Counted from the stretch's first letter, positions 35,523-59,478 are shown. The stretch: DNA of 64,000 nucleotides from a virus (IMGVR_UViG_3300016672_000090:1-64000); one strand, 5' to 3'. Notes: generated by a model not told the origin, from the sequence alone. Program-made: numbers and translations.

Positions 35523-35563
35523 ATTGTCTATGGCTATGCGCCAGCCTTCCGTGGCTGGTTTGC
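35523..35563 (-). promoter_or_regulatory. Late promoter motif (lysis)
   Basis: GCAAACC-N28-GACAAT. Confidence 0.75.
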
Positions 35564-35568
35564 GCGGT

Positions 35569-35817
35569 TCAGACGCCTTTCTTGGCGATGATTTGCGCCA
35601 CGTTGCCCAGTGATTTAATGATCGCGTCCAGGCGGTTAAGCTCGGCTTGGACCACCTTGTTTTCGTTTTCTCGCCCGCTCTTCCAGTTGCTGAAAGGCTT
35701 GCTTTCGAACAGCTTGCTTACACGGCTACCGGTGAGTTTCCCGGCCTGTGCCAAGTCCTGCCCGAAGTACAGCGCCAGCTCAGCACGAACAGCGTTATAC
35801 GACTCCCATAACTGCAC
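35569..35817 (-). CDS. Morphogenesis-region small protein
   Basis: Coupled to the upstream tail-region gene. Confidence 0.55.
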   Translation of the reverse strand: MQLWESYNAVRAELALYFGQDLAQAGKLTGSRVSKLFESKPFSNWKSGRENENKVVQAELNRLDAIIKSLGNVAQIIAKKGV

Positions 35818-36559
35818 GCGCCCCGATGCTGATGCAGGAACGGGAAGGAAAAATGGCCGGTGCTAACTCTGGCTCCCCCTCTGCGCGCACGGAAACAGGG
35901 TGGGCCACAACGCCGTGGACGCAGGTAACTGCATGCACCAGGTGCGCGCCGCTATCACGGACGCTTTCATAGGCATGGAACAGCTTTACGAACTCGGACG
36001 CGGGCAGCTTGCGGTGGTTGGCAATGCGCTTCACAAGCCACGCCTCATAACTGGCATCGTCGACGTAGGGCTCTGGCTCTTCATTAGCGCCACGCACGCA
36101 CGCCGCTATGGTTGCGCACCACCAGCTAAAATCGGTCGGCTTGTAGGTTCCGCCAGCGATCAAGGTTTCGATGATTTCAGCCTGATAGCCCAGCAGCGGC
36201 GTATACAGCGCATCGTTACCATCAAAACTGAATGGTATGTCGCCCACGTAATCGTGGTCCTGAGCATTGATCAGGAAGTCGCTAAAGTTCCCACCGCCCA
36301 CGGGGAAGTCCGGGCCGTCATCACGGGTGGCTGCCATGTAGTTGGCCACCACATAAATTCGCTCATTGATCGACCAGAAGCGTGGATCAGCTACTGCATT
36401 GGGACGATCCACCGGCTTACAGACTCGGCGCAGCAGCTCGCTGACCGTGCGCTGCTCGTAGACAGCCGGGATTTCGCACAGCTTCTCCACGTCCTCAATG
36501 AGCATTTCGGACATTTCAACCGATATACGGCGTGTATTTATGGGGTTGATGTACTTCAT
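35795..36559 (-). CDS. Tail/baseplate-region protein (possible assembly chaperone)
   Basis: ATG 36559 coupled to the upstream stop; position in the tail operon. Confidence 0.6.
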   Translation of the reverse strand: MKYINPINTRRISVEMSEMLIEDVEKLCEIPAVYEQRTVSELLRRVCKPVDRPNAVADPRFWSINERIYVVANYMAATRDDGPDFPVGGGNFSDFLINAQDHDYVGDIPFSFDGNDALYTPLLGYQAEIIETLIAGGTYKPTDFSWWCATIAACVRGANEEPEPYVDDASYEAWLVKRIANHRKLPASEFVKLFHAYESVRDSGAHLVHAVTCVHGVVAHPVSVRAEGEPELAPAIFPSRSCISIGARAVMGVV

Positions 36560-37263
36560 AGCGTTCCAAAGGAGTCGTATTGGGTGAATGACAGGTTGAG
36601 TGCGGCGAACTCGTCTGTACTGCGCGAAAGATTGACCTCGCACGACACGGGCAGCAGCACCCAGCTTTTGGAATAACCCCGGCCTTCCTCTACGGCGCCA
36701 TGGGTCACTGTGATGGTGTTGGCGTATTCAGACGGCAAGCCAAAGGTGCCGTCTGGATGCGCTGCAAGCATGGCCAGTCGGTCAAACCAAGTTTTGATTT
36801 CCCCGCCCACGTCGTAGCAGACGATGCGCAGCTCTATCGGGTCGGCCCCCGTAGGGGCTTGAGTGAAGCCCGAACCAATTTTTACCGGTTCATACCCAAG
36901 CTGGACGCTGTTAAAAGACACCTCTGTAGCCAGCAGATTGACGCGGGGAGCCGACAACTTGCCCACCGGATCGACGCCGATATGCCATAGATTCGTGCGC
37001 TCACGCCGGACGCTGGATGCCTCTTCGTACATTTGGAGCTGCTTGGCCCAAGACACCCCAGCCAGGATTGTGTTTCCGCCTTCGGAAAACACACTTGTGC
37101 GACCAAAAATTGTATCGAGCAGGCTATTGGCCGCACCGCTCAGATCGCCGTTCAGCAGGTTGCGCGCTGCGGTTGTGTACTTGAGTACTTGGGTGCTCAA
37201 GCCCAGCTTGGGCGTTATGGACTCAATGCCCTGATACGCCAGCCGCTCAAAGATGTTGGCCAT
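36556..37263 (-). CDS. Tail tube-like/baseplate protein
   Basis: Beta-rich; HPDGTFGLPSEY and PVSCEVNLS pattern of tube-initiator proteins. Confidence 0.6.
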   Translation of the reverse strand: MANIFERLAYQGIESITPKLGLSTQVLKYTTAARNLLNGDLSGAANSLLDTIFGRTSVFSEGGNTILAGVSWAKQLQMYEEASSVRRERTNLWHIGVDPVGKLSAPRVNLLATEVSFNSVQLGYEPVKIGSGFTQAPTGADPIELRIVCYDVGGEIKTWFDRLAMLAAHPDGTFGLPSEYANTITVTHGAVEEGRGYSKSWVLLPVSCEVNLSRSTDEFAALNLSFTQYDSFGTL

Positions 37264-37667
37264 TAAATCGACCTCACTTCGTACACAAATGTCAGCTGAG
37301 GCAAGCGCAGCTCATAGTCCAAAATCGATTGAACGACCTCGGACACGGTTCTGCCATAAAGCTCAGCGCCCTGGCTTCGGGAGGCCTCCAGCGCCGTAGA
37401 GTTCTCTTTCTCGATGTACAGGAGCCACAAGGGGCGGATGATCGCCAGTTCGCTGTGCGTCAGCTCCACATCGATGGGTGCCGGCAAGGTGTCAGCGGTA
37501 TACAGATCGCTGTGCACGGTATCGAGTGACTGCGAACTGGTCAGCCGGGCATATCCACAGTATTGGCGCACCGCATCGCGCAGATTGCGGCCTATCTGCT
37601 CTTCCGTCAGCACACAGCCAATCGGCAGCTCAGCAATGTACTGTTCAACTAATTGGCTGACTTTCAT
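37263..37667 (-). CDS. Virion morphogenesis protein (head-tail connector-like)
   Basis: Position in the tail operon; helical pattern. Confidence 0.5.
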   Translation of the reverse strand: MKVSQLVEQYIAELPIGCVLTEEQIGRNLRDAVRQYCGYARLTSSQSLDTVHSDLYTADTLPAPIDVELTHSELAIIRPLWLLYIEKENSTALEASRSQGAELYGRTVSEVVQSILDYELRLPQLTFVYEVRSI

Positions 37668-37669
37668 GG

Positions 37670-38143
37670 TTACTGGTTCGCAAACCAGTGGAACGTCATG
37701 GTGCCGGCCAGGATGAATACCTGCATATCGTTTTCCCAGTCACGATCTGGTGTATCCATCACCAAGATGCACTTTTTCAAGTCCTCTTTTTTGGTGTAGT
37801 CATCAGGGCGCCCGGCGTAGACGGTAGCGTTGAACTCGCCACCCTGAGCGATGATCTGCTTTAGGAACTCGCCAGCTTTGTTCTTGCGGGTTTCGTTGAT
37901 TTGAATCGGGCCTTCCTGCATGGTCTTGTTTTGGGCAGCCTGGCCCATTTTTTGGCCAAGTGGCCCCCAATGCTCAATCACACCGCCCGCGGTTGCTACC
38001 GGCCAAGGGAATTGCTTGCACAGCAGCATCATGTCTTCAAAGCCTTCGATCACCATGGTGGCGTCGGCCTGGACTGCCTTAGCGCCCATGTCGTTGACGT
38101 TTTGAAACGTGCGGCTCAATACCGACATACTGGAAACGGTCAT
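37670..38143 (-). CDS. Tail tube protein, P1 Tub/BplB-like
   Basis: GAKAVQADATMVIEGFEDMMLLC...WGPLGQK...QINET aligns by eye with P1 GERLVSSEF...GHEDISVLV...YGPNGVK...QCVET. Confidence 0.75.
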   Translation of the reverse strand: MTVSSMSVLSRTFQNVNDMGAKAVQADATMVIEGFEDMMLLCKQFPWPVATAGGVIEHWGPLGQKMGQAAQNKTMQEGPIQINETRKNKAGEFLKQIIAQGGEFNATVYAGRPDDYTKKEDLKKCILVMDTPDRDWENDMQVFILAGTMTFHWFANQ

Positions 38144-38178
38144 AAATCACCCTTTGTAAAATTGGTTCACTCCGGGCA

Positions 38179-38219
38179 ATCGTCACATGTAAAAAACCCC
38201 GCCAAATGACAGGGTTTGC
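38179..38219 (-). promoter_or_regulatory. Late promoter motif (tail tube operon)
   Basis: GCAAACC-N28-GACGAT. Confidence 0.75.
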
Positions 38220-38236
38220 AGGGTTTTTCTGGGAAG

Positions 38237-39421
38237 TTAGCGACCAAAGAAGCGCTTGATATCCGGGCGGTCGAGCGCGGTAAGCGTGGCCATGGAAACC
38301 TGTACTGGCAGATCCGTGAAATAGCCGTTGATGTCCTTCGGAGCATCGAGCGGGAAACTTACGCTTTCGATCACCATGGGCGACCATGTGCGGCCAGCGT
38401 AGGTAAACCCCAGCATTTTTGGGGCAAATGACGGAAACAGGGCCTTGATAAACGAATCCACATCTTTCGTGGTGCCTATCACCTCCGAAAGAATCCCATC
38501 CGCTGCTAGCTCTTGTGGAAACACCCACTCCAGCAAGCGCGTCAATGGAGCCTCCACCTCAGCCAGCGCATCGTTTACAGCCCGAAAATGCAGCGTGAAG
38601 TTCACCTTTACTGGCGGCATCCCCGAAAACACCTGGCGGCTGTTGAGCTTGGTGATACCTGTGCGCCCTTCAAGGTCACGCATGACGCTCTTGAGCTTGT
38701 CTGAGCCCGCATTGAGCGTATCGGCTATGACGCCATCCTTGAATGGGGAAATGGCCTGTAGCGCATTGAGAACCGGCACCAATGACCCAGACTGCAACAT
38801 GCCGGCCAGCGCTGGGGCCTTAGTCTCTGGTCCAGTGCTCTCAAAGGGTGATACCCAGTTTTGCTGGGATTCAAACGAGCCTTCTTTTATCGCCGCATAG
38901 ATCCCGACGAACTCATTTTTAAGATCGGCCACCCCTTTGGAGTTACAGACAAATAGGCGAGCCAACAGCAAGGGTGATAAGCGGCCCCACTCGCCGCCAA
39001 GGTCAGAGCTGAGCGTCTTGAGTCCTGGAATGTACTCACCCACGCCCCCCATGATGTTGCCAACTAACGCTTCGGGATCAGCGTTGGTGACGCCATCCAC
39101 TAGCCCCATCACTTTTTCAGAGACTTGGCCGACTACCTGGCCTACGGTCGTTTTACCCGCCCAAAGATCAGCCACCGTGCCGGATACGGTGCTGACTGCC
39201 CCTGTCAGCGCCTCGCGGTTAGCCGATCCACCCACAAAGCCGTCAAGCGTAGACACGCCAACCTTGTAGATGCCAGAAGCGGCGCCAGCGGCGCCGTTCT
39301 CTACGAATTTGGTGGCTGACCCTAGTAGCTTGTTTGAAGTACTCGCAGATACCGGGGCGGTAACGCCCTGGATGCTGGCAGATACGGTTTTACCCAAGCT
39401 ATCAACGCTAAAGTCAGCCAT
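38237..39421 (-). CDS. Baseplate/tube-initiator-like protein
   Basis: Low-complexity S/T/G/V N-terminus; C-terminal PMVIESVSFPLDAP...VQVSMATL. Confidence 0.55.
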   Translation of the reverse strand: MADFSVDSLGKTVSASIQGVTAPVSASTSNKLLGSATKFVENGAAGAASGIYKVGVSTLDGFVGGSANREALTGAVSTVSGTVADLWAGKTTVGQVVGQVSEKVMGLVDGVTNADPEALVGNIMGGVGEYIPGLKTLSSDLGGEWGRLSPLLLARLFVCNSKGVADLKNEFVGIYAAIKEGSFESQQNWVSPFESTGPETKAPALAGMLQSGSLVPVLNALQAISPFKDGVIADTLNAGSDKLKSVMRDLEGRTGITKLNSRQVFSGMPPVKVNFTLHFRAVNDALAEVEAPLTRLLEWVFPQELAADGILSEVIGTTKDVDSFIKALFPSFAPKMLGFTYAGRTWSPMVIESVSFPLDAPKDINGYFTDLPVQVSMATLTALDRPDIKRFFGR

Positions 39422-39424
39422 TTT

Positions 39425-40156
39425 TTACTTACCCAAAAGTCGGGTGCGCATGCGCATGGACTTGGCACGCTTCATTTTTGCGGCGCCAGAGAATGCGCGG
39501 CGCTGCATCTTGCGCACGGCACCCTTCTGCGCAGCAGTCAGGCGGACACGACCGCTGATGCGCTTCTTGATGCGAACCTTCTTGCCACCACGAATAGCGA
39601 CGACCTTTTTGTAAACGGCATCGAGCATTTCGTCGTCTTCGCCGCTGACGAACTTGTCAGCGTCATCGAGCATTGCGTCCTCGCCCTGCGGCAGCTTGTC
39701 CAGCAGCGCATCATGAATGCGAGCGGCCACGTCATTTTCAAACGATGGGTCATCGGCCAGCAACGAATCGATGTCGGCGGCGTCGATACCCTTGCCTTCC
39801 AGGTAATCGCCTACCTGCTCAGCCAGCATCGCCGCGTATTCCGCCTCATCGTCGGTCAAGTCGTCATCACCGTCGGAGGCGGTACCCACGATCAGTGCAT
39901 AAAGACGGTCGCCAAAGCCTTCGCTTTCTTCCAGTTCCGACTCAGCCCATTCCTGAACGATGCTCACGGCATCCTGGCGCATTTCTTCGGTATGCAGCAC
40001 AGGCGGGGCATTCTCAGGCTTTAGCGCGTCGAGCATGGACGCTGCAAGGTTCGACAGTTCCAGGTTTGGCACTTGGGCAGGTGGTGCTGGCACCGCCGCG
40101 TAGGCTTGGTTGATCGCAGCACCGTGAACAAGTACGCGTTGCAGTAGCATTTCCAT
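39425..40156 (-). CDS. Prohead core/internal head-like protein
   Basis: Very acidic middle and very basic C-terminus (RVRLTAAQKGAVRKMQRRA...KRAKSMRMR); MLD(A/D) repeats. Confidence 0.55.
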   Translation of the reverse strand: MEMLLQRVLVHGAAINQAYAAVPAPPAQVPNLELSNLAASMLDALKPENAPPVLHTEEMRQDAVSIVQEWAESELEESEGFGDRLYALIVGTASDGDDDLTDDEAEYAAMLAEQVGDYLEGKGIDAADIDSLLADDPSFENDVAARIHDALLDKLPQGEDAMLDDADKFVSGEDDEMLDAVYKKVVAIRGGKKVRIKKRISGRVRLTAAQKGAVRKMQRRAFSGAAKMKRAKSMRMRTRLLGK

Positions 40157-40166
40157 AGATTTCCCC

Positions 40167-41801
40167 TTATGGCCGCACGACAGACTGCTGATTAACGATG
40201 ATACGAGCCGTACCGTCGTAGCAGATTGACGTGTCGATGTTCATTTTTTCGAATGGCTGATTTTCATTCGCCTGGATGGTGGCCGAGTAGCAAGCCCCGC
40301 CGAGTTCGTCACTCGTTTGCAGCCAGTTCGCCGATTGCAGCGCCGGCAGGAAGCGCTCAAGAAACTTGGTAGTTTTCTCGATAGCCTTGGCCATAGGGTT
40401 CTGCAATGCTTCTTGAGCGACCGATGCAATGGTGTCGTCGACGTAGGTGGCCATTTCAACAACGGCGATCAACTTGGTAGCGCCTTCGGTGCGGGCGCCG
40501 GTCAAAGAATCGATCCAGGCATATTTGCCACCGCTGGCGTAATCCTTGAACAGCACCGGGTTGATGCGCGACACAGCCAATTCTTCCAGCTCGGTTTCTT
40601 CGTCCGGCTCGTAGGTCTGCACCATTTTGGTACGGTTAACGGCATAGTCACTGCCAGCGATCACGACGTTACGCGGGGCGATGCCCTTGGCGTTCATCTG
40701 GGCGTTTCGGGCACAGCGCAGACCGATGTTAAGGCCTGAGGTGCCAATGAAAGCGATGCCGCCAACCGCCGGGTTCGCGGCCTTGATTGGAGCCCAATAG
40801 CACTGGCTGTACATGCTGTCAGTGGCGCCACCTACAGAGTCGTAGAAGGTAATGGCAGCGGCTGGCGTGAAGCGACCCGCGATATCCCAAACCACTTGCT
40901 TGTTAATCAGCTTGCCAAGCTCCAGCAGGCGAGAAATAAGAGCCACGTTCTCGGTACCGCCACCGCCGATGTAAGTAAAGGTCGGCTTGGAGCGCTTGAT
41001 TCGATCAACCGCCGCGTCCATATCTTCGGTGGTGTACAGCGTCGCGCCTTCGGTGAAGGGGATAAGAGGCGCCGATGCATAGGCGTCTTTGTTGTCCTTC
41101 TTGCCGTAGAACACGCAAGTAATCGGTACCGAAGCATCGGCAGCGACATCGACCACTTCCAGCAGGTCGGTGTACTGCTCAACGATATCGCCGATGAAAA
41201 AGCTCTGACCAAACTCATCGAGCGCAGCCGGATCGAGCGAGCCCTTGTATGGGCCAAGTACGATTTCGTTGGTAGTTACGTCGCGCAATTGCAGCGTGAT
41301 GATTTTGGAAGCGGCAGGGGCGCCAGCTTCATCGGTGGCAGCGTCCGCGTGAATCTCAGCCTTAACGCCTTCCGAGAAACACTCCAGGTGCTTGATGGCG
41401 ATCAGGTAGCCGCCCGTGGCCCCCGTAGCTTCTTCAACCAGTGCCCAGCTCGGTGTTTCAGCCGAAACCGAGGCAGTAGCCACCATCAGCTTGTTGGTAG
41501 CGGAAGCACTTACCAGGCGGGATACGATGGCCTGCACCGCGCCGCTTTTCAGCGCTTCATAGACATGCACGTAGGGCTCACCCAGCGCGCTGACCGACAG
41601 AGACTGTGCGGCACCCAGAGTGCGCTTGATCTTGTTGCGCGATACGGCAAATGCCTTGTCGATACGACCACGAGCAAACCGGCCAGTAATGGCCATGTTA
41701 TGCGCGACGGTGCTGGTGCTCGGCATTTCCGACATGTCATTGAGGTAGTTGAGCTGTACGCCCGAACGCTTATCAATGGTGCGAGAAAAAGGCTGACCCA
41801 T
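40167..41801 (-). CDS. Contractile tail sheath protein (P1 gp22-like)
   Basis: 544 aa; G.FARG..DKAF, SRINPV, WIDSLT, YDG..R sheath motifs; position next to the capsid gene. Confidence 0.8.
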   Translation of the reverse strand: MGQPFSRTIDKRSGVQLNYLNDMSEMPSTSTVAHNMAITGRFARGRIDKAFAVSRNKIKRTLGAAQSLSVSALGEPYVHVYEALKSGAVQAIVSRLVSASATNKLMVATASVSAETPSWALVEEATGATGGYLIAIKHLECFSEGVKAEIHADAATDEAGAPAASKIITLQLRDVTTNEIVLGPYKGSLDPAALDEFGQSFFIGDIVEQYTDLLEVVDVAADASVPITCVFYGKKDNKDAYASAPLIPFTEGATLYTTEDMDAAVDRIKRSKPTFTYIGGGGTENVALISRLLELGKLINKQVVWDIAGRFTPAAAITFYDSVGGATDSMYSQCYWAPIKAANPAVGGIAFIGTSGLNIGLRCARNAQMNAKGIAPRNVVIAGSDYAVNRTKMVQTYEPDEETELEELAVSRINPVLFKDYASGGKYAWIDSLTGARTEGATKLIAVVEMATYVDDTIASVAQEALQNPMAKAIEKTTKFLERFLPALQSANWLQTSDELGGACYSATIQANENQPFEKMNIDTSICYDGTARIIVNQQSVVRP

Positions 41802-42200
41802 TTAGATTGCCTCCTTAGCGGCTGGCTTTGCGGCCTTGCCAGCGGCAGGCACTGGAGCTACTGCCGGGACTGTGGTTTCTTCCAGCGCTGGCGCCAAGGC
41901 CTCTACCGCTGGAACTTCTGCTGGCGTCAGCACGGCAAAGTCTTCGGCTTCATTGCCGGCATGGCGCGCCAGCTCAGCGAGGTCAGTTACCAACAGCCAG
42001 GCCTGGTCGAAGCTCTTAACCTTCACCTGGACCTTCACATTTGGTTCAATCGGGGTGTTGATGCCCGAGGACGGGACCACCAACGGTTTTTTGTTCTTGT
42101 GCGTCAACGACGCCCAGAACGGCAAGACCTGGCCTTCCACCAGCGCCTGAGCAAGAGGGCGCGGGGCACTGCCAGCTTTTTGATCAATTTTTACGGTCAT
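41802..42200 (-). CDS. Virion-region protein
   Basis: Coupled ORF between capsid and sheath. Confidence 0.55.
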   Translation of the reverse strand: MTVKIDQKAGSAPRPLAQALVEGQVLPFWASLTHKNKKPLVVPSSGINTPIEPNVKVQVKVKSFDQAWLLVTDLAELARHAGNEAEDFAVLTPAEVPAVEALAPALEETTVPAVAPVPAAGKAAKPAAKEAI

Positions 42201-42921
42201 ATTTCACCTGCAAACCTTTGAGGTTGTCCCACTTGTGCGCCCTTGCACTGCTGGTCAGCGCTTTGGCGAGTTTGGCGAACTGATCCGCTGTAACCTCGAC
42301 CTCGGCCTTGGCGTAGGGGTCCAAGAAAATCTGGGCGCCAGCTACCGGGATGCGGCTTCGGGTGTGGTTTTCGAGAACAATCGTTGCCGGGAACTCGCTA
42401 ATTTCAGGAAGCGCCCACACGGTCAAAGTTACGGCACAGTCAGCGGCTTTTTCGGCGCCGGTTTGCGCGGTTTCCAGGCTCTCAGTACGGGCTTGGTCGT
42501 AGGCATGGGCCTCGCCTTCAAGAAAAGCCATTTGCTCAGCCAGAAGGTTGGCAGCTTCGGTGCGCCTGGCGTCCTCAGCCAAGGCTTCTTCCTCAAGCAG
42601 GGTCATTTTCAGCGCCAGCAACCGCGCAGCTTCGGTACGCTCGGCGTCCTCAACTCGTGCTTCGCCTTCCAGAAGGGCCATTTCTCGTAGCGCTTTATCC
42701 TCTGCGCTTTCGTCTTCACTTCCAGCGCTATCGGGTGCATTACCAGCGGGCGCACCAACGCCCGGTGAGGTCGCGGATTGCTCCACGCCTCCCGGAGTTG
42801 TGGGGGCCGCTGCGGATTTAGCGGCAGCAGGCTTTTTGCCCGCTGCTGGAGTGCTTTTCGCAGCCATGACAGCCCCCTTTAGCCCAGTGCGTACACGTTT
42901 TTGATGGTGATCAGCGCGCAA
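42184..42921 (-). CDS. Virion-region protein, Ala/Glu-rich with internal repeat
   Basis: Repeats of LLEGEA/LLEEEA/FLEGEA; its C-terminal domain resembles the neighbouring ORF. Confidence 0.55.
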   Translation of the reverse strand: MRADHHQKRVRTGLKGAVMAAKSTPAAGKKPAAAKSAAAPTTPGGVEQSATSPGVGAPAGNAPDSAGSEDESAEDKALREMALLEGEARVEDAERTEAARLLALKMTLLEEEALAEDARRTEAANLLAEQMAFLEGEAHAYDQARTESLETAQTGAEKAADCAVTLTVWALPEISEFPATIVLENHTRSRIPVAGAQIFLDPYAKAEVEVTADQFAKLAKALTSSARAHKWDNLKGLQVKYDRKN

Positions 42922-44561
42922 CCCATTGCGGATTGCATGTGCGGGTTCACTTCGGTCAGCTGGCGGGAGAACAGCGCCGCGCCGGTTTTCAGATCCGAGT
43001 TCACCGCCAGCGGGATCAAGGTCGGGGATACCGCGTCAGAGAAGACAATCGGGTTACGCGCAACCTGAGGGGAACGACCGACACACAGGATTTCGATATC
43101 TACGTCGGTTTCTTGAACGACATACGGGGTGTAGATAACGTCGTACTTGTTCTTGTAGCGGCCCACACGCCAGATACCAGCCTTTGCATCCACACCCGAC
43201 GCAACAAAGTCAGTGCTATCCATGGAAAGGAACTGAGACATACCGTGAGCGCCCACGTACATGAAGCTCAAACCGAATTCCATGGTCTGGTTGGCCACTT
43301 CCTGGTCAACAGCAGCAACGAACGAGCCGAAGTCGCGCCAGCCTTGAGCACGGGTTTTCTGCAACAGCTGCTCGGCGGCGTTGAAGTCGTATTCGCGATT
43401 GGTGTTCTTGGCCAGCTTGCGAATTTTTTTCAGCGCGGAGATATAGCGCTCATTCGCCATCTGAGTGCGCGCGGCCTGGACAGCGATGGTCAGGCGATCC
43501 GCACCCAATTCAGACTGAGCGGAACTGCGCGAATCAGGGGTAGCCTGCATGATCACGCGGCTAGGCGCGCAGTACAGGGAAAAGCTCTGCGCGACGGTAC
43601 CGATGTTCGGCGCCAGTTCAGGCTTGCGCTCGAAGTCGATAAAGCCTTGTGCTTCCACGTCGACATCAGCGGCCAGGGCCGGGTTGAACGTCAGGGTACC
43701 GACGCCGGTATCCACGTTAACGCTACCGTTAATAACGTGGTTCTGAGTACCGACCTTCACTTGACCGGAAATCAACGAGGTGACTGTGCCGGAGTTATTG
43801 GCCTGCTCGAAAGCAACCGGGAAGCCGTTAACGACAATCGATGTACGGTTGCGGATCAGCGGGACAGTGCCGCCGCCAGCGATGCCAGCAGTAACCGCGA
43901 AGGTGCCACCAGTACGAGCAACGTCAACGGTAACGGGCACAACTCGTTCGGAGCGAGTGTATTCACGACCGCCAGCAGTACCGTCGATGATATCGCCAGC
44001 GTTGTATGCGCCGAATGTAGAACCCGTGATCGAGGTAATGATTGCCAGCTTCGACTCGTTAGAGCTGAGGTCAGATGGCAGATACGCGCCGAACGGAATT
44101 GCTTCGCTCAGACCACCGGTGATTGCCACAGCAATACGGTTCGGCTGGTGCGACAGGGTTGCCGATGCGTTGTTGGTACTGATGCTGTCCAGGGTAGTGC
44201 CATGCGGCAGAACGTGGGCGCTCTTACCGTCAGCAACGTTTTCAGCCTGAGAGAGGACTGCATCGATCAAGTCAGCGGACGGCGAAAAGCCATGCTTGCG
44301 TTGGAAAGTCGCGATACCGTCCAGCATCGAAGTGATAGCCAGGGCGCGGTTATCGTCACCATCGATTTTGTCCAGCAGGCGAGCAGCTCGCGCCGGCAGC
44401 AGGGTACCAGCGTTGGCCACGGCGTTTTTCACCACGTCCTGAGCCGATGCGCTCATGCTATCGAGCATATTGCCATTGCCACGCGCGGCGCTTACCAGCG
44501 TACCAACCTTGGCAGCAACCTCACCCAAACCGGAATCGGGCGCGTAAATATTCTTCGGCAT
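42879..44561 (-). CDS. Major capsid protein, P1 gp23-like
   Basis: FGAYNAGDIID, VPLIRNRTSIVVNG, PELAP match P1 gp23 (FGSYAAGDVLD, VPIRKGRTNIYVNR, PELIP); ATG 44561 with SD gaggt. Confidence 0.88.
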   Translation of the reverse strand: MPKNIYAPDSGLGEVAAKVGTLVSAARGNGNMLDSMSASAQDVVKNAVANAGTLLPARAARLLDKIDGDDNRALAITSMLDGIATFQRKHGFSPSADLIDAVLSQAENVADGKSAHVLPHGTTLDSISTNNASATLSHQPNRIAVAITGGLSEAIPFGAYLPSDLSSNESKLAIITSITGSTFGAYNAGDIIDGTAGGREYTRSERVVPVTVDVARTGGTFAVTAGIAGGGTVPLIRNRTSIVVNGFPVAFEQANNSGTVTSLISGQVKVGTQNHVINGSVNVDTGVGTLTFNPALAADVDVEAQGFIDFERKPELAPNIGTVAQSFSLYCAPSRVIMQATPDSRSSAQSELGADRLTIAVQAARTQMANERYISALKKIRKLAKNTNREYDFNAAEQLLQKTRAQGWRDFGSFVAAVDQEVANQTMEFGLSFMYVGAHGMSQFLSMDSTDFVASGVDAKAGIWRVGRYKNKYDVIYTPYVVQETDVDIEILCVGRSPQVARNPIVFSDAVSPTLIPLAVNSDLKTGAALFSRQLTEVNPHMQSAMGCALITIKNVYALG

Positions 44562-44614
44562 GTGTAACCTCATTTCTGATAATTGCGGGCTGCGCCCGAG
44601 TCGTTTCAGAAATG

Positions 44615-44655
44615 ATGGTAAGAGCGAAAAACCCCCGTTTTTGGCGGGGGTTTGC
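44615..44655 (-). promoter_or_regulatory. Late promoter motif (capsid operon)
   Basis: GCAAACC-N28-TACCAT. Confidence 0.78.
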
Positions 44656-44677
44656 ACGGTTTTCGCTGATTTTTAGG

Positions 44678-47600
44678 CTACTTCTTGATGATGATCATCC
44701 GGGCATTTGCCCCGGTTTGAGCCAAAAGGTCTTTATCCTTGAAAGTTCCGCCTTCCAGCTTCTCAATCGTGGCTTTGTGAGTGTCCAGCCACGCCCGGAA
44801 CGCAACGGCCTTCTGGTCGGTACCGAAGAAAACACCCTCCCCGGCAATCGCCACCAGACGCCCACCACTGGCGAGCATTCCGAATGCCCGCATGATGTGG
44901 CTCGCGTCTTTGCGCGCGGAAAATGGAGGATTCATCAGAATGGCCTGATACGGTTGTTCGGGTGTGAAACCTTCAAAATCGTGGTCTACGACGGTGTACC
45001 CCTTGGCCGTCAATATGTCCCTTAATTGGCTGGAAATTTCGATAACGTCCACCTCACCACCGGCAGACTTTGCGGCGTCCGCTAGATTCCCGTTGCCGGC
45101 GCTGGGCTCAAGTACTCGTGTGCCTTTGGTGATGCCTGCCAGGCTCGCCATGCGGTGCGCCACGTTCAAAGGCGTTGGGAAAAAGTCGATCCCAACCTTC
45201 TGGCCAATAATTGCCCGCTCAGCTTTTTTGACTGCGCTCTCTTCGGTCTTTGCGACCATCATGGGCAACAGCTCGCGAGCGGCTTCACGCAAGGTTGAGG
45301 CGTCTGTGATCCCCATCCGGGATAGTCGCTCCAGACGGGCTATGCTCTCCATAGGGTCTTGAAGCACATGGGAATCCCTAGTCCCCTTGAGCAAGGCGCT
45401 TGCCCGGCGGGTAATAGCAGCATCCTCTGTGTTCATCGTGAACTGTTCAGCCCTGGCCCCCATTTTGTTAAGAGCGGCCATAAGGCGCATGTTTCCGTCA
45501 GGGCTGTGCTTTCCAATGGCCTTGGCAGCATCACGAAAGCGACTGGCCCACGTCACTTGGCTGGGCATGGTGATGTTTTTGAGGTCGTTGTCATCGAACG
45601 GACGGCCTTTGCGCTTTAACTGATCGCTATAGCTCAGGCGCCTATCCGTTTCGTACTGAGCCAGGCGCAGGGCTCTTTGCAACTCTTCCAGTTGCGCCCG
45701 ACTGCTGAGCTTGGTCAGTAGTCCGCCGGCGCCGACTTCGATGGCATCGGCGATGTTATTGAGGGTCTGACCGTCTGCCTTGTTGGCGGATGCCTTGGCA
45801 ATAGCGCTCGCGGCCATACCGGCACGCCTGGCGGTGTTTGTGGTGCGATCCTGACTCATGCCAGCATCGCCACTCTCAACGGCCTTGTTCGCTACTGTGC
45901 GCAGCTTCTCGACCTGACTACCCAGCGCTTTTTGGCGGCGCTCTTCGGCCAGACGCTCAGCATTGGCTGCCTTTTCGACTTCCTGCTCAGGAGAAAGCAC
46001 CACCGGCGCCGGCGCGGCCTGAATATGCGCCGTGGCGCCGTCCAGGTGTTCCTCACGAATGAAGTAACCGCCATTCATGCGCCAGGTGTAGGCGTCAATG
46101 GCTTTAGCTTCGGCAAAAGCCAAATCAGTGCGGACGATCCCGCGCAACACCTTGCCGCGCTTGGTGGTGTACTCAATGATTTCGTGCTGTGCGGCAGGCG
46201 GTTCAGGATCTTGGTCAGCATCCGTCGGAACGATCTTTTCCCCGTTCAAGATCCAGCGGCGCCCGGCGTTGTATTCGCGGGCATGCGCTCTCACCGTCGC
46301 AGGCCCGGTTTTTCCGTAGGCGTGAACAATGGCAGCGCGCTTGCTATCGTCCATCACCATCAAACCGTCTTGCAGTACCAGGAACTCGCGACGGGAGCCG
46401 TAAACCGGTATGGCGCCAACTTCGGGTGGTTCAGCTAGGACGTTCGGACTGATGAACTGCGTCCCGGTGCCCGTGATGGCGGGCTTGGAGGCTGGCGGCT
46501 CAACTGGTACCGGCTCAGCTTCTTGGCGGGCCTTGATATAGATTCCCAGCTCCAGGCGGTGCTGGCCCATCTGGCGGGCGCCTTCGTTAGCCACAGCGGG
46601 ACCAGTGCGCCGGCCGCCACCATTCATTTCGCGGTCGCTTTGCGAACTGCGGATTTCCCCGCCCATGCCCTCATAGACCGCTTCCAATTCGGCCACGGAC
46701 TTGTCACCGTACTGACGGGCCATGCGCGCCATGATGTCGGCGTCTGACTCTGCCCCCGCTTTCACCCGCTCAATCAAATAATCGCGGTTCTGCTTGAGCG
46801 CCTGAATGGCCTGCGGGCGGTCATAGGTGCCTTTCTCCAGGCGGCGGGCGATGTCTTTGGTGGCATGGCTGAGGCCGCGATAGAAGTCCTTGGCTACAGC
46901 CAGCAACTTGGCCTGTAGCTGCTCATCATTCGCACCTTCAATCGTTGAGTCTGGTGTTTCAGCGGTAATTACCAGTGGCTCGACGTTTTTTGGCTCCGCT
47001 GGCGCCCTGGCTGCCTTCACCCGCTCAGATAGATACTCGTCCGCCCACTGGCGCACGTAGGCAACGTATTCGTCTTTGTTGGCCGATACAGGGGCTTTGG
47101 TGAGGCGCGTAAACTCGCCAGCCCGAATTCCAGCCCAACCCAAGAACCCGGCATTGCTACCGCTGGTTGGCAGTTCTTCCAGGGTGTCCAGGTAGGCTTG
47201 ATAAATTGGGTTTTCAGACGTGCCGGCGCCGATAGTCTTTTCAAATTCCTCGCGCTTTAGATGATCCTGCAAGGCGAGCACCCGCGCCAACTCTTCGGCC
47301 TGCACCTTGGCCAGCGCCTCAGCCGCCTCCTTTTCCCGCAGTGGGGCAGCAGCCTTATCGATATCGGCGGCTTCGTTGTCTGCCTTGCGTTGCGCAATGG
47401 CTGCTTGCTCTTCCTGATACGCCTCGATGTCAGCAGGCGTCGCATCCTCACCAAAAACGGCGCGGAATTTCTCGGGGCCCCATTCTTGCGCCATCAGGCT
47501 TTTCAGCTCTGGCAGATCGCGAGCAATCCCCGAGATATCGCCCTTGAACGCTACAGACACACCGTCGGGATCTGCATAGGTGTAGAGCACAGCGCCAGAC

Positions 47601-48188: not shown

Positions 48189-48229
48189 ATTTTGAGGCGC
48201 GGTAATTACCCTGGTCGGGGGCAGTTTGC
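48189..48229 (-). promoter_or_regulatory. Late promoter motif (MTase)
   Basis: GCAAACT-N28-CAAAAT. Confidence 0.72.
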
Positions 48230-50400: not shown

Positions 50401-50402
50401 AG

Positions 50403-52197: not shown

Positions 52198-52246
52198 GGC
52201 TCAGTGCTCCGCTGCTGTAGGGTGCCGCTGGCTGCGGCTTGGCGTC

Positions 52247-52323: not shown

Positions 52324-52396
52324 ATCCGCTATCGAGCGCCAACAAAAAGCCCGCACGCGGCGGGCTTCCTGTTGCTATGGGTCATTAGAGGCCAGG

Positions 52397-55300: not shown

Positions 55301-55978
55301 GGCGCTATCCATCAGCAGGCCGCTAGGATCTGCTCGGCGCATTTCATACAGCACCGCGCCCACGGTTTCGCCCACCGGGAGGTTATCGGCGCCCCAGCGC
55401 GTCAGTACATCAGTCATGCTCAAAGCCTCATCTTTTGGAATATTTGGTAAGTCAGGGGATAGGGGCTTGTTTAGATCCCCGTGCCTGAGCCAGTACTTGA
55501 ACTGCTTGATGGTGCAGGCCGCGACACTGCCAAGGCCGGACCAGCCCTTTTCGTAGGAATTCATGTAGGCGGTGCAGGCCTGTACCTGATCGGTGAAGCC
55601 AAGCATTACCTTATGCTCGTCGAATACCGGCTCATCGAATGAGCGGTCGACCTTCTTCACCTGATTGATCACGTACACGCACAGGCTCTCGGGCGCCGGG
55701 CCTACAAACACGTCCACAGCGTCCCCGTCTGCACCCTTGGTCCCGTTCACATAGCCGTAGTGCGCCATACAGGTGATTGACCATGGTTTGCCGTCTTGCT
55801 TGCCACGGCGCGACTGGAACATAGGGGTTTCGATGGTGATCCGCAGGCCATGCATGCGAAAGCTGCCCTTGGCGTAGTTCCCGGCGCGGATCTGTGCGGG
55901 TGTGGGCTCTGCGCGAGAACCCATCCCGAAAGCGCCAGCATGGGCGGCGCTTTGGAGTTTGCTAAAAAGGTCGGACAT
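52397..55978 (-). CDS. darA: DarA-like polyvalent head protein: InPase + DarA_N + ddrB-like ParB + DarA_C-like
   Basis: PT.AQ..AGNY.KG...HYGY..GT.GADGD.VDVF (InPase); DDGQSVSVFFH...NKKDIT..VAP...KNSAKF (P1 DarA N); NPEYP..IQPRDR...DSGAPIV...VESGNGR (ddrB-ParB); helical C-terminus. Confidence 0.85.
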   Translation of the reverse strand: MSDLFSKLQSAAHAGAFGMGSRAEPTPAQIRAGNYAKGSFRMHGLRITIETPMFQSRRGKQDGKPWSITCMAHYGYVNGTKGADGDAVDVFVGPAPESLCVYVINQVKKVDRSFDEPVFDEHKVMLGFTDQVQACTAYMNSYEKGWSGLGSVAACTIKQFKYWLRHGDLNKPLSPDLPNIPKDEALSMTDVLTRWGADNLPVGETVGAVLYEMRRADPSGLLMDSATMTDITEHLGESGEMLDAMVIEYKQFERKAGQLLRVMQAASSDVKALTVEVSKPFKSKGTTQVAMLFGMDDGQSVSVFFHNPDSTPNKLTPSDELISWKWVQNKKDITAVVAPERGQDINPRIVARRIMALIQKNSAKFIKANENKAASTAALDEQKALVEAKTGQLASLDAQILDLTAQLEQKKATPVVEPVQPPVVVEPESVPAVSVSSSILEDYAEVAALGMATVISVGSENVYFDKDGKQYMTKLLNTDDYEARVGEVVDLSGVVDPSAASAVDESPVILQGPAGPVTVAKTKYVDTGEWGVSWASTHLATAASKAEGVAIAERVIASGADNIADMRAAVEPEVVPEPKAETLNEVARRLVPAEFVSDIDPDGFTAIAADGYGIRLRPTAGGSMLTAYILKPGVNGQESMGSSTLENGIESAVGTALGTALLFIEKWRADQASAVVEMPPEPVAVPAVEPDTNEDTGTIEAEGRDNTVKTAKGTKVVTGFKVIEAKNLIISHETDGTVNPEYPPEIQPRDRARTTSQAWVQKTARNLDPDSLGRTQRADSGAPIVGADRVVESGNGRAMAIREAYRIGQADEYREWLLENAEYFAVDPAKIQRMKAPVLVRVRKTEVNRVEFAVESNQDDKLAMTATEKARSDAKRLDTAMLAKLTDGDLNSAANRDFVAAFLQSLGDAEAAQYLTTDGKPTSGLISRLQAALFAGAYSDDRLLEMTADQAKPEIANIVSALNSAAPDFMRAKEQDRIGAEKAGEQVTDSLELSLNQEAVNAIIGATNVLRQAKEAGMGLDEFLRQGDMFGGTDPAIAAMAVFISANNRSAKRMSTAFKAMAQFVESENIRKQTAGLFGDEPASFTDIVSAANRKLEQEYGEGLFAIDQADMFSQPPQSAPPEEPDEDEAVQQAKSYLDDIIGGTTDLGSASDVLKELERIYAAYGEDKLSELFIEASDAFRDYALKATASAF

Positions 55979-56002
55979 AGAAGCGGCTCCCTGAAAGTAG
56001 CC

Positions 56003-56043
56003 ACGATACCGCCCGTTGCCCCCGCTCCCGGCTGACGGTTTGC
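56003..56043 (-). promoter_or_regulatory. Late promoter motif (darA-like)
   Basis: GCAAACC-N28-TATCGT. Confidence 0.75.
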
Positions 56044-56104
56044 GCCAAATCGCAGGCACAAAAAAGGGCGCCGCATGGGCACCCTTAGGGATGAAGCTAC
56101 CACC

Positions 56105-56353
56105 TTAGAATTCAGGCGTTGGTGCATTGTCGATCAGCTGCCCAATGACTTCGGACACAGTGCAACGGTTCTTAACGGCGATGAGTCGCAGTTTCTGATC
56201 CTGCTCCGCTGTGATGTAGGAGTTAAGACGCTCTTTGGCTCCCAGCTTGATTACTTTCGGCCTTTGGCTCGGACGGCCCGCCTCGATAGTATCGGCTGGT
56301 TTCACATCAGAGGGCGCACGTGCCGCGCGCGGCTTAATGGTTAAATCACTCAT
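56105..56353 (-). CDS. Small partition partner (ParG-like ribbon-helix-helix)
   Basis: Flexible N-terminus; ERLNSYI....DQKLRLIAVKNRCTVSEVIGQLID; downstream of parA. Confidence 0.75.
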   Translation of the reverse strand: MSDLTIKPRAARAPSDVKPADTIEAGRPSQRPKVIKLGAKERLNSYITAEQDQKLRLIAVKNRCTVSEVIGQLIDNAPTPEF

Positions 56354-56363
56354 GGCTTACCTT

Positions 56364-56411
56364 TAGCGTTAAGACGTTTTCAGCATGATAGTGCATGTAA
56401 CGCTTTAGCGT
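56364..56411. repeat. Degenerate octamer array between parA and the parG-like gene
   Basis: tagcgtta agacgttt ... taacgctt tagcgtct. Confidence 0.55.
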
Positions 56412-56415
56412 CTAA

Positions 56416-57057
56416 TCACGATGAGAGGAACGCCAGCACTTCGTTTTTTAACGCACACAGCTCATGAGCCGCAAGACCGCCTGGCCGGGTATCCAGAGGG
56501 GTACGCCCGGATGCTTGGGCTCTCGGATGGTCTTGGCGCTGCACCATACGGGTCTTAAACACCGGGAAACCGTAACCCGTAAGGGTCTTGGATATTTCCT
56601 TGCTGAGCTTCGTATTCCCGATGACGCGAGATACGACAAATGCCACTTTAACCGGCGCTTCGCCTGCGGCTACCTGATCGTCTTGATGATCTTTAATCAT
56701 GTTCACCATTTCGCTTGTTGCCCATACGTCTAAGGGCGACGGCTGTACGGGGATCAGAATCAGGTCCGCAACCTTGATCGTCTTCAAGGCTAGATCCGCA
56801 GCCTTCGCAGTGCCGTCGAGAATGACGAAATCATTTTTCAGCTTTGGTATTTCACGCTCAAGCGCTAGGCGCTCAATCACGTACACCTGCATAGGCTGTT
56901 CTTTATTCGCCTCTGCCCAGTCAAGCAAGCTGCCCTGCGGATCAGAATCAACTAGCACCACATCATGCCCGTCAAGGCTTAGCGCCCGCCCTAGACCTGT
57001 ACAGGTTGTTGTCTTGGCCGATCCGCCTTTCTGATTCATCACCGCAATAACTGTCAT
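56416..57057 (-). CDS. parA: Type Ib partition ATPase
   Basis: Deviant Walker A NQKGGSAKTT, DSDPQG, FVILDG, PVQPSPLDVWA; short, with no N-terminal HTH. Confidence 0.93.
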   Translation of the reverse strand: MTVIAVMNQKGGSAKTTTCTGLGRALSLDGHDVVLVDSDPQGSLLDWAEANKEQPMQVYVIERLALEREIPKLKNDFVILDGTAKAADLALKTIKVADLILIPVQPSPLDVWATSEMVNMIKDHQDDQVAAGEAPVKVAFVVSRVIGNTKLSKEISKTLTGYGFPVFKTRMVQRQDHPRAQASGRTPLDTRPGGLAAHELCALKNEVLAFLSS

Positions 57058-57093
57058 GCCCTGCGCTCCACCCAATTGATTATGGGCGGATTC

Positions 57094-57157
57094 TAGCGTT
57101 ATTACACTATAACGCAATAGGGCTGTTGCTCTATGGCGCCTTAGCGCTAAGGCGCCT
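57094..57157. repeat. Eight phased octamers upstream of parA (centromere/operator)
   Basis: tagcgtta ttacacta taacgcaa tagggctg ttgctcta tggcgcct tagcgcta aggcgcct. Confidence 0.75.
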
Positions 57158-57229
57158 ATGCTTGCTTGGGGCGTAAAAAAGCCCCGACTGGCGGGGCGCT
57201 TTGTATAGCAATTGCTGATCCTGGAACCC

Positions 57230-57505
57230 TTAATTAGACGCCAGCACCTGTACCGGCTCAGGACAACTAACCCGTGGGTCTTTGGGCCAAACCCCCTCAC
57301 TGATCATCTTGCAGGTCCACTCATGATCCGCTACAGCCTGATCGTAATCGCTACCACCTAACCCGGCTACCAATAGCAGATAGAGAGCTGCCATGAGCAA
57401 ACCCCCTAACCACATACCTATGCGGACCAACTTAAGCTGTTGTGCATTCATCGCTCTATTCCTTTTCGAGTCAGTCATAACCTTTGACGAAAAGAACATT
57501 ATCAT
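57230..57505 (-). CDS. Small membrane protein
   Basis: One transmembrane helix; C-terminal YC/WPD-type motif (WTCKMI..GVWP). Confidence 0.55.
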   Translation of the reverse strand: MIMFFSSKVMTDSKRNRAMNAQQLKLVRIGMWLGGLLMAALYLLLVAGLGGSDYDQAVADHEWTCKMISEGVWPKDPRVSCPEPVQVLASN

Positions 57506-57564
57506 TTGATTGTTTAAACAGCAAGCGATGCAACCTCCAAATTATGTATTTATGAGGATTTACC

Positions 57565-58047
57565 ATGTCAGAAGCACCGGCTGGAATGAAAATAATGGCA
57601 TCCATAGGCGGGTTTGGCCCAGCAGGATCTATGCCTGTGACGCTCATGGCGTTCAAATCAAACGCACTCGGCACCATGACGGTTTTGAATCAAATTACGT
57701 ATAGGGAGTTTCCAGACGAAGGTTTTGCGTTCGTAACCAACCTTCGGCTGAAAAACTACGATTGCCTGTTCAAAGAGGAACATTTGGCCGCTGCGATCAC
57801 GGCGTACAAGGAAGCAGAAGGCATGGGCACCATTTTGCTGGCGGATGATGTCGCCAAGTGGCGCCCACGGATCGAGTCGGACGGCGTGGATACACAGGGG
57901 CAGAAGTATCGACTGCACGGCGATATCGGTAATGCTGAGGTGGCAGTGCTGGCGCTGGCGCACTTCATGTCACGCCAGCGCGGTATCGAGTCACTGACAC
58001 AGATGAGTGACGATATCGCCCGCCTGTATCAAATCACCTCGATCTAG
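57565..58047 (+). CDS. Hypothetical protein, antiparallel to neighbours
   Basis: SD gagga; 160 aa; convergent with the hdf-like gene. Confidence 0.65.
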   Translation: MSEAPAGMKIMASIGGFGPAGSMPVTLMAFKSNALGTMTVLNQITYREFPDEGFAFVTNLRLKNYDCLFKEEHLAAAITAYKEAEGMGTILLADDVAKWRPRIESDGVDTQGQKYRLHGDIGNAEVAVLALAHFMSRQRGIESLTQMSDDIARLYQITSI

Positions 58048-59405
58048 TCACCAGCGGCGAATGGCTCGCCATAGGCATCAAAACCAGCGTCCTCCAGGGC
58101 GCTACGGCCCTTGTCGGTCAGCATGTAAAGCCCCTCAGCTGTATTGACCATCCCCAGAGCCAGCAATTGCGCCAGCGCATCCTGGTCCTTGATATCTGTC
58201 ACGTCTGCCGCTGAAACAATGGCGATGTTCACCAGCTCAGATAGGCCAGAATCACCGAAGTCAGGGCTCACGCTATCGAGCATGGCAATAGCGGTGGTAA
58301 AGGATTTGGCCAGGCTGCGCTCAAGTGCTGCCTGATCCAAATTACCTTCGGCCTCATTGATCGGGGCATTCGTCTCTACAACGCTCAGCGCTTGTCTGAG
58401 CTGCTCGATAGCGCCAGCGGTGGCCAAGCTATCCATCATCGTCGGATCAGCCAGGACAATCTCACGCGCAGCCACATAGGCGTCGGACATGATCAGCTCT
58501 GCGCCTTGCAGTTGCTCGACTGAATCCAGCAACGCGGCAGCAGCTAAGGTTTCGGCGCCTGGCGCGTTAGGAACAGCGCCAGCAATAAGAGCCCAAGCTG
58601 GGGGCAGTTCGCCATGCTCGTCGGTCGGTACAAGCTCAAACTGGTCGCGGTTGTAAAACAATCCATCTGCCCACTTCTTAGGGAAGCCATTCGGCTGCTT
58701 ACCACCTATGCTGTCCAGCAGCGCAGCAGCGAGTGTCTGGCCTTCTGCGGTAAGCCAGTTTGCCCCATCATCGCGAGCCACAAGATTTGCTTTTAGCAGT
58801 TCGTCACGGCCCTGCTTGCTGATCAAGTCACCGTCCTCGACTGCACCAGCCTGCAACTGCACCAACACTTCTTTTGCGGCATCGTTCAGCTCAGCGGCGG
58901 GCGGCAAACTATCGACCATGATGCCAAGCTGCTGCTGTAAGTCCGCGACTGTAGCCTGGTGCTCAGCAATCTGAGCATCGAGCTGTGCAGCACGCTCGGC
59001 ATAGACCGTTATCTGTTTTGGCGCCGGCGTGCTCATGCCCTTGGGTAAAGCAATGGCCTTCCGTGCCTGCGCTTTCTGGAATGCCCCCTGCGTTTTTTCC
59101 AGCAGCGCGGCAATTTCCGCCACAGCCTTGTCAGAGTCGGTCTGGTTCTTGAGTGGTTGCACAGAGCCGTTAAGCAGCACCTGAAAGATATCGCCGGTCG
59201 TATTCACGCGCAGCACCACCAGTTGGCCACTGGCTACGGTCAAAGAAGCCTCGCGGTAAGTAATGCCAGAAGTCCGGCGCGCAGTGGCATTGAACTCAGA
59301 TGAAACCACGGGCTGACCCGCACGAATCATGAGTGTACTGACCTTCTTAAGCGCCTTGGCAGCCGACTGGGCATTGGTGAAATCGAGCTTATTCGTTGCT
59401 GGCAT
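58044..59405 (-). CDS. Hdf-like (DarA_N homolog) head protein with long acidic extension
   Basis: SGQLVVLRVNTTGDIFQVLLNGSVQP vs P1 Hdf DGQILAIQVNDTGDISSVKLNGKAIP; five (L/M/V)DS motifs. Confidence 0.8.
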   Translation of the reverse strand: MPATNKLDFTNAQSAAKALKKVSTLMIRAGQPVVSSEFNATARRTSGITYREASLTVASGQLVVLRVNTTGDIFQVLLNGSVQPLKNQTDSDKAVAEIAALLEKTQGAFQKAQARKAIALPKGMSTPAPKQITVYAERAAQLDAQIAEHQATVADLQQQLGIMVDSLPPAAELNDAAKEVLVQLQAGAVEDGDLISKQGRDELLKANLVARDDGANWLTAEGQTLAAALLDSIGGKQPNGFPKKWADGLFYNRDQFELVPTDEHGELPPAWALIAGAVPNAPGAETLAAAALLDSVEQLQGAELIMSDAYVAAREIVLADPTMMDSLATAGAIEQLRQALSVVETNAPINEAEGNLDQAALERSLAKSFTTAIAMLDSVSPDFGDSGLSELVNIAIVSAADVTDIKDQDALAQLLALGMVNTAEGLYMLTDKGRSALEDAGFDAYGEPFAAGD

Positions 59406-59437
59406 GACTGCCCCCATGGATTGGATAACTGAGGGAT

Positions 59438-59478
59438 ATTGTGAGGGCTGGAAGTTGCCGGGCACTGGTGTGCTTTGC
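59438..59478 (-). promoter_or_regulatory. Late promoter motif (hdf-like)
   Basis: GCAAAGC-N28-CACAAT. Confidence 0.72.

Follow-up and report, generated by a model that had tools for sequence, protein, structure and literature searches.

How are the late genes of a phage distantly related to P1 switched on, if the promoter-like sites ahead of them have no recognisable -35 element? The question is raised by IMGVR_UViG_3300016672_000090, an 82,738-bp virus record in IMG/VR that is estimated to be 96% complete and whose first 64,000 nucleotides (nt) are the stretch analysed here (the window). Its genes are P1-like, but distantly so, with a capsid protein 37% identical to that of Xanthomonas phage Rb1 and about 25% identical to P1 gp23. 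Matches in PHROG identify tail tube, P1 gp23-type capsid, PmgG-like, Hdf-like, DarA/DarB-like, portal, baseplate and tail-fibre proteins, and nearly all virion genes of the 82.7-kb genome lie on the minus strand, below also called the late strand. Ahead of the virion, lysis, methyltransferase (MTase) and Dar/Hdf-like units on this strand we find a promoter-like signal in two parts, as a preliminary description of the window had proposed: a heptamer, GCAAASY, and a -10-like hexamer 28 nt downstream. The signal is specific to the late strand and its spacing is rigid. We consider it likely that a Pseudomonas P1-like phage uses these sites as its late promoters, fired with the help of a phage-encoded activator that binds the heptamer.

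The six sites first described are all present on the minus strand, each ahead of the gene to which it had been assigned, and the PHROG labels agree with the assignments. The putative promoters precede the lysis unit, which begins with a small protein of 108 amino acids (aa) followed by an endolysin (35523-35563, GCAAACC-N28-GACAAT), the tail tube gene (38179-38219, GCAAACC-N28-GACGAT), the major capsid gene (44615-44655, GCAAACC-N28-TACCAT), the gene for a 1158-aa methyltransferase (48189-48229, GCAAACT-N28-CAAAAT), the gene for a 1193-aa DarA/DarB-like head protein (56003-56043, GCAAACC-N28-TATCGT) and the Hdf-like gene (59438-59478, GCAAAGC-N28-CACAAT). A canonical -35 was found at no site, either by a promoter/terminator scan or by direct reading, in agreement with the earlier description. 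The same generic scan called none of the sites, which it missed because they lack a -35.

By itself, the heptamer is not over-represented, with 65 occurrences in the window against 53.9±7.3 in shuffled sequences. The composite GCAAASY-N28-NANNNT, in turn, occurs nine times in the window, always on the minus strand, against 2.68±1.63 expected, and none of 100 shuffles reaches nine. An excess over random positions, as implied by the preliminary description, is thus seen for the composite and not for the word alone. Across the whole genome, NANNNT stands at spacer 28 after 14 of the 47 late-strand heptamers and after none of the 37 on the other strand; at each of the other spacers between 18 and 39, only 0-4 late-strand heptamers are followed by it. 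The hexamers are mostly TAnnAT or (C/G)AnnAT, with the consensus TAnnAT and an invariant A2 and T6. Beyond the word and the hexamer, the only conserved features are a pyrimidine just before the word (at -1) and, some 18-21 nt into the spacer, a T-rich patch. No second half-site or dyad is conserved around the word, nor is there conservation 16-18 bp after it, as a -35/-10 pair would need. A naive genome-wide search for pairs of 6-mers and spacers was too noisy in coding DNA; TGCAAA with spacer 30 ranked second here, and GGAAAA with spacer 29 was indicated in Rb1.

The count of six given earlier was too low. GCAAASY-N28-NANNNT behaves as a predictor, since it located further sites outside the window ahead of late genes. 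These five intergenic late-strand sites have heptamer 5' ends at genome positions 80746, 77155, 75192, 70274 and 67807, and precede, in this order, a unit encoding 114-aa and 519-aa proteins, a P1 gp26-like baseplate wedge gene, the portal gene, a baseplate module and a tail-fibre gene. Within the window, a probable internal late promoter lies inside the gene that follows the capsid gene (42426-42466, minus strand, GCAAACC-N28-TAACTT) and points at a 132-aa gene and a 544-aa gene (40167-41801), the latter 22% identical to P1 DNA over 550 aa. Scanning the whole replicon yields 14 copies, and twelve of them count as good ones once the matches at 8219 and 4078, discussed below, are left out.

Conservation among close relatives supports the same picture. 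A search of IMG/VR with the capsid protein gave such relatives at capsid identities of 82-88% and 66-67%. In five whole records (G001-G005, clade A) the late strand carries 11-18 copies of the pattern and the opposite strand 0-2, and a reversed-pattern control gives 0-3. The peak at spacer 28 recurs in each of the three relatives analysed in full; counting the genome under study, the four genomes have 14, 18, 18 and 11 sites at this spacer, where the background is 0-5, and none antisense. At orthologous promoters the heptamer, the 28-nt distance and the hexamer are kept, whereas the spacers and the stems of hairpins within them drift. The lysis site has the same heptamer, spacing and hexamer in G001, G002, G003 and G005, and in these four records the DarA/DarB-like and Hdf-like sites are also kept, the latter with a divergent spacer. 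Ahead of the MTase gene the relatives have GCAAAGC-N28-CAAAAT and a conserved leader. The internal site at 42466 keeps its heptamer, its spacing and TAACTT or TAATTT in all five relatives, G004 included, with a diverged spacer.

Three of the spacers hold a complete intrinsic terminator, a GC hairpin followed by five or six T residues, between the word and the -10: those at 44615-44655, 38179-38219 and genome 70234-70274. The A-tract arm of these nested terminators is supplied by AAACC from the word, so that they look bidirectional. Ahead of the capsid gene the terminator is that of the MTase gene, CCCCCG-loop-CGGGGG-T5. In other genomes its stem reads CCCCCCG..CGGGG, CCCCCT..GGGGG or CCCCCA..TGGGGG, so that the terminator is kept in structure and not in sequence, with GCAAACC and TTACCAT fixed on either side. 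The tail tube spacer likewise contains a terminator-like hairpin and a T6 run, and here too the hairpin sequence differs among relatives while heptamer, spacing and GACGAT are retained.

The preliminary description called the promoter phage-specific, which proved too narrow: the heptamer is common to a clade of Pseudomonas phages, and the layout extends to a much larger family that uses a second word, GGAAAAN. The GCAAASY pattern is absent from P1 and from Rb1. In Rb1, however, a spacer-aware search found GGAAAA-N29-NANNNT, equivalent to the heptamer GGAAAAN plus 28 nt, at eight of 21 plus-strand occurrences of GGAAAA and at none on the minus strand. Of these eight sites, seven lie directly after stop codons and ahead of late genes, among them those for the prohead protease, the capsid, an internal head protein and a tail-collar fibre. 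Five proviruses whose capsids are 38-42% identical to the one studied here (G006-G010) have 6-10 late-strand GGAAAAN sites against 0-2 on the other strand. Spacing again peaks at 28 in the four of these analysed in full (G006-G009) and in Rb1; altogether, NANNNT is enriched at spacer 28 only, and on the late strand only, in nine genomes.

A survey of 79 capsid-related loci with enough upstream sequence extends this result. In 74 of them a heptamer-N27-29-NANNNT pattern occurs about 60-130 nt before the capsid start, where some 2-3 would be expected by chance, and in 63 of the 74 the spacer is exactly 28. The word splits cleanly with distance: GCAAACC is found in all 23 loci with capsid identity of at least 55%, and GGAAA(A/C)N in all those at or below 43%. 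On these comparisons, the layout appears to be a property of a large phage family, and GCAAACC the derived word of one Pseudomonas clade. Our search of the literature, including that on Rb1 and on late promoters of Pseudomonas P1-like phage-plasmids, found nothing relevant that describes either word or the layout. At four promoters (35563, 38219, 42466 and 44655, gaaaaccgtGCAAACC), GAACC or (G)AAAACC stands 2-3 nt upstream of GCAAACC. This flank is similar to GGAAAAC, a word of the wider family; it may have survived from the ancestral site or provide a second contact.

From these patterns we infer promoter activity, late timing, the position of the word at -44 and the mode of contact with polymerase. 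In the model that we favour, the promoter would consist of a sigma-70-type -10 and a YGCAAASC word exactly 28 bp before the hexamer, with no -35. With a transcription start some 7 nt past the hexamer, the word would lie at about -47 to -41, centred near -44. The host sigma-70 holoenzyme would use the -10, and would fire only when a phage activator occupies the word. Bound there, on the same helical face as the missing -35 and one turn upstream of it, the activator could contact sigma region 4 or the alpha C-terminal domain and so recruit or stabilise the polymerase. The strict gap of 28 bp would then reflect the geometry of activator and polymerase and carry no sequence information, and this freedom may be what allows the intrinsic terminator of the preceding operon to nest inside the promoter.

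Late promoters of P1 are activated by Lpa (gp10) together with host SspA. The regulon is much the same in the two phages: as in the Lpa system of P1, where dispersed promoters with a -10 and no -35 stand before capsid, tail, baseplate, fibre, lysis, dar and pac units, the sites here precede capsid, tail, baseplate, fibre, portal, lysis, dar/hdf and MTase genes. The cis element and, probably, the regulator differ. The annotated record of P1 shows its late promoters as caacAAGTGACTT-N4-TAnAAT, with a 9-bp box AAGTGACTT 4 bp upstream of the -10 and centred at about -22, in contrast to a 7-bp word 28 bp upstream of the hexamer. The preliminary description was right to separate the two systems. The -22 box has zero matches on either strand of the genome, even in the relaxed form TGACT-N5-TAnnnT, and searches of the 82.7-kb genome with the P1 Lpa protein, phrog_1704 and PF25716 gave no match at E values up to 10.

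Other phage systems offer partial parallels. The late promoters of Mu (Mor/C) and of P2, 186 and P4 (Ogr/B/Delta) also use sigma-70 and a -10 without a -35, and their activators bind upstream of the -35 region or overlap it. The Mor/C sites (about -30 to -55) and the Ogr sites (TGT-N12-ACA centred at -55) are dyad-symmetric, however, unlike the single asymmetric 7-mer described here, and neither Mor (PF08765) nor Ogr_Delta (PF04606) has a match in the genome. At the middle promoters of T4 a phage protein, MotA, acting with AsiA, recognises a non-palindromic box that replaces the -35 at a fixed distance from a sigma-70 -10, but the MotA box has its centre at -30, a distance of 11-13 bp from the -10, and AsiA must remodel sigma, whereas the distance here is 28 bp. 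Promoters of alternative or extracytoplasmic function (ECF) sigma factors have -35/-10 spacings of 16-18 bp, again unlike the 28 bp found here. A search of the genome for a phage sigma factor gave no Sigma70_r2 match, and the only r4_2-like match was a weak helix-turn-helix (HTH) in a small open reading frame (ORF) that is absent from G004.

Which protein, then, might read the word? Every ORF of the genome was compared with three clade-A relatives, Rb1 and about half of P1 (45000-94800), and candidate regulators were then searched for in four clade-B genomes. An XRE-HTH protein of 204-251 aa is the only recognisable DNA-binding protein common to clade A, Rb1 and G006-G009. In the genome under study the candidate is a 251-aa protein (8070-8825, minus strand) with an XRE-type HTH at about residues 58-118 (Pfam HTH_3, E 6.7e-8) and, in its C-terminal part, a long helical domain. 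With its counterpart in Rb1 it shares 31% identity (E 4e-12), and relatives of it are on record in Pseudomonas sp. UMAB-40 and P. lurida. Its gene lies upstream of the small terminase gene in nine of nine genomes checked, the slot occupied by lpa in P1, where the activator gene also stands just upstream of the packaging genes. The recognition helix reads T(M/Q/N)(I/V)SL(Y/F)ENG(H/R)R in every GCAAACC genome and (P/S)(S/T)KL(S/A)K(V/I)E in every GGAAAAN genome. The former helix is kept even in genomes whose capsid identity falls to 55-57%; outside it, their XRE protein is only about 40% identical, with a helix 2 that looks clade-B-like. Because of the synteny with the lpa slot and the co-variation of recognition helix and word, the XRE protein is the best candidate for the activator, and we give an even chance to its being the protein that reads the word.

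An AlphaFold (AF2) model of the XRE protein has a mean predicted local distance difference test score of 74 overall and 83-89 over the domain, and comprises a standard five-helix XRE domain followed by long helices. Foldseek scores it at 0.75-0.80 (template modelling score normalised to the target) against ImmR, BldD and P22 c2, and the HTH domain superposes on C.BclI, C.AhdI, P22 c2 and ImmR. The proposed arrangement resembles that of the class II HTH activators, such as lambda cI at PRM and the C-proteins of restriction-modification systems, where an XRE/cI-type HTH binds in strict phase immediately upstream of the -35 position. Lambda cI and the C-proteins, in contrast, bind as dimers to palindromic operators at promoters with a recognisable -35, where we see one half-site and no -35. 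The protein is without a characterised relative among GenBank phages, as tblastn found no match for it and only a self-match for its Rb1 homologue. We also considered the XRE family as a homologue of Lpa and rejected it; BLASTP was not significant, and hhalign gave a probability of 1%, reflecting only a 10-residue 'LNPEF' coincidence.

In Rb1, the eighth GGAAAA site (PQ569993 position 690, locus L029), GGAAAA-N29-GATAAT, lies directly upstream of the phage's own XRE/HTH gene, which suggests that this gene is positively autoregulated. There is no such site before the XRE gene of the genome under study. Taking the comparisons together, one may speculate that a large, hitherto unnoticed family of P1-like phages and phage-plasmids, in Pseudomonas, Xanthomonas and other hosts, replaced Lpa by an XRE activator reading a single 7-bp half-site at about -44, and that one switch from GGAAAAN to GCAAACC changed the helix together with all late promoters. 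We put this history forward tentatively, at slightly under an even chance.

Several points weigh against a late promoter read by the XRE protein. The heptamer is common in the genome, and the hexamers are weak -10 elements (GACGAT, CACAAT, TATCGT). XRE proteins usually bind palindromes as dimers, and no second half-site is conserved upstream of the word. Against the PDB, Foldseek gives generic XRE/HTH matches only, and nothing for the C-terminal domain. The co-variation of helix and word appears to be a single evolutionary switch, for which reason we only infer the assignment of the activator; the XRE protein could instead be a repressor or serve in the control of packaging. Two of the pattern matches may reflect chance or coding conservation, as they fall in or at the end of coding sequence. 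One (8179-8219, minus strand, GCAAAGC-N28-GAGCAT) falls within the 3'-terminal part of the XRE gene, pointing into about 620 nt ahead of the small terminase gene. Its position corresponds to that of LPpac in P1, although coding constraint could also explain its conservation. The other (4038-4078, minus strand, GCAAAGC-N28-TAGGGT) is at the end of a 206-aa ORF before the large terminase gene, and is doubtful as a promoter because a terminator-like hairpin directly follows the hexamer and no match is listed in G004. Finally, the phage is present in public runs only as contigs from wastewater 'RNA-Seq' libraries, probably of DNA, which reveal no starts, ends or strand; one oligo-dT run contains only scattered pieces of 150-270 nt.

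Could the word be read directly by the host RNA polymerase? The proximal UP subsite, AAAAAARNR at -46 to -38, is bound by the alpha C-terminal domain, and the sites would then be '-10 plus UP' promoters, constitutive or tuned by growth rate. In the wider family the word GGAAAAA is indeed an A-tract at about -46 to -41, and rigid spacing is what direct contact with polymerase would produce. Clade A, however, exchanged this A-tract for GCAAACC, a poor one, at every promoter and along with one recognition helix, and such a coordinated change of word and helix points to a co-evolving phage factor. The invariant G or GG and C positions are atypical of UP elements, and the late genes of a temperate phage must stay silent in the lysogen. 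We regard direct reading by the host polymerase as quite improbable. A phage protein other than the XRE protein could also be the reader: a 127-aa LytTR-like protein (genome 81293-81676, minus strand; a weak match, E 3e-4) and a 90-aa HTH_31 protein (6091-6363, minus strand) have domains conserved in clade A, many conserved early ORFs lack a Pfam or PHROG function, and a reader of GCAAACC specific to clade A is conceivable. That one of these, or an ORF without family, reads the word at a late promoter is nevertheless unlikely in our judgement. No counterpart of the LytTR-like, HTH_31 or 206-aa protein exists in Rb1 or in G006-G009, all of which have the layout, and the first two were for this reason rejected as family-wide activators. 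A Cro-like 74-aa protein and an Aca-like HTH protein were likewise rejected on their distribution, the Cro-like one being missing from G004, which has the motif.

An explanation at the level of RNA would make the word a signal for termination, processing or antitermination at operon boundaries, such as the A-tract of a terminator, with its distance to the hexamer incidental. All sites do lie at operon junctions, and at three or four of twelve (70274, 44655, 38219 and, weakly, 67807) AAACC forms the 5' arm or A-tract of a hairpin that is followed by a T-run. Most sites, however, lack a hairpin or T-run, no structure is conserved across sites, NANNNT is enriched at exactly 28 nt only, and in orthologous sites it is the hexamer that is conserved and the hairpins that drift. 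We therefore hold this explanation to be very improbable, and return to late promoters fired by a phage activator.

If the XRE protein is that activator, what controls it? The element TATAGGGATACTTT lies upstream of its gene (8867-8880, minus strand), is exact in G001 and G003, and is represented in G004 by two variant copies, TGTACGCGGATA(C/G)TTT, before the XRE gene. As (TG)TATAGGGATACTTT, it has two exact copies in the genome, the one before the XRE gene and another before the tail genes at 63622 (63643-63656, minus strand). Weaker copies of TATAGGGATACTTT occur at 13932-13945 (plus strand), 25978-25991 (minus), 28514-28527 (minus) and 29175-29188 (plus). The second exact copy lies at the weaker seventh promoter that had been proposed at 63653-63693. 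The hexamer of that site, TGTATA, does not conform to NANNNT, and in the closest relative its heptamer is replaced while the adjacent TGTATAGGGATACTTT is kept exactly; the conserved element of the region (63643-63693, minus strand) is thus TGTATAGGGATACTTT (63643-63658) and not the heptamer. By analogy with the C1 operators of P1, TATAGGGATACTTT is likely to be an operator of the immunity repressor, or else a distinct class of early or middle promoter, controlling the candidate activator. The putative XRE activator would then itself be under an operator-like element, much as lpa in P1 lies behind a C1 operator.

The stretch between the XRE and small terminase genes, about 620 nt (7446-8069, minus strand), has no convincing ORF. 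An 89-aa ORF within it was set aside, as it looks non-coding, belongs to no family and is poorly conserved. Rfam returned nothing for this spacer, and folding gave a z-score of only -1.9. A non-coding RNA, a long leader or the pac region could be located there.

The spacing rule flags late operons in a large and poorly studied group of P1-like phages and phage-plasmids, which the searches made here met in wastewater and soil metagenomes and in Pseudomonas and Xanthomonas isolates. It also marks the MTase and the Dar/Hdf-like anti-restriction cargo as late and probably virion-associated, as the preliminary description had supposed for the window. A regulon would here have kept its membership and layout while its cis word and, probably, its regulator were replaced (Lpa and the -22 box in P1, an XRE protein and the -44 word here); within the family, word and recognition helix switch together. 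A promoter spacer that holds a complete terminator represents a compact design for an operon junction. If the proposed mechanism is true, matched pairs of word and activator could serve as natural orthogonal expression switches.

As to the origin of the phage, the named relatives of one protein of the genome come from Pseudomonas isolates, and megablast of the late region against GenBank phages gave no match. Wastewater libraries from three studies contain sequence near-identical to window positions 35400-45300 (share of sampled words 0.6-0.87). Judging from these matches, sewage communities harbour the phage or close strains in circulation. Both a ParA-type ATPase (56416-57300, minus strand) and a tyrosine integrase with an arm-binding domain (32262-33470, plus strand) are encoded, and the phage may accordingly be kept as a plasmid, integrated, or either. 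In the gene for the large terminase (770 aa; 1700-4012, minus strand) there is an insertion of the Hint/intein type (Pfam Hom_end_hint, residues 78-319). Relatives of this terminase show 97% identity over only about 452 aa, and this limited span suggests that they are without the insert.

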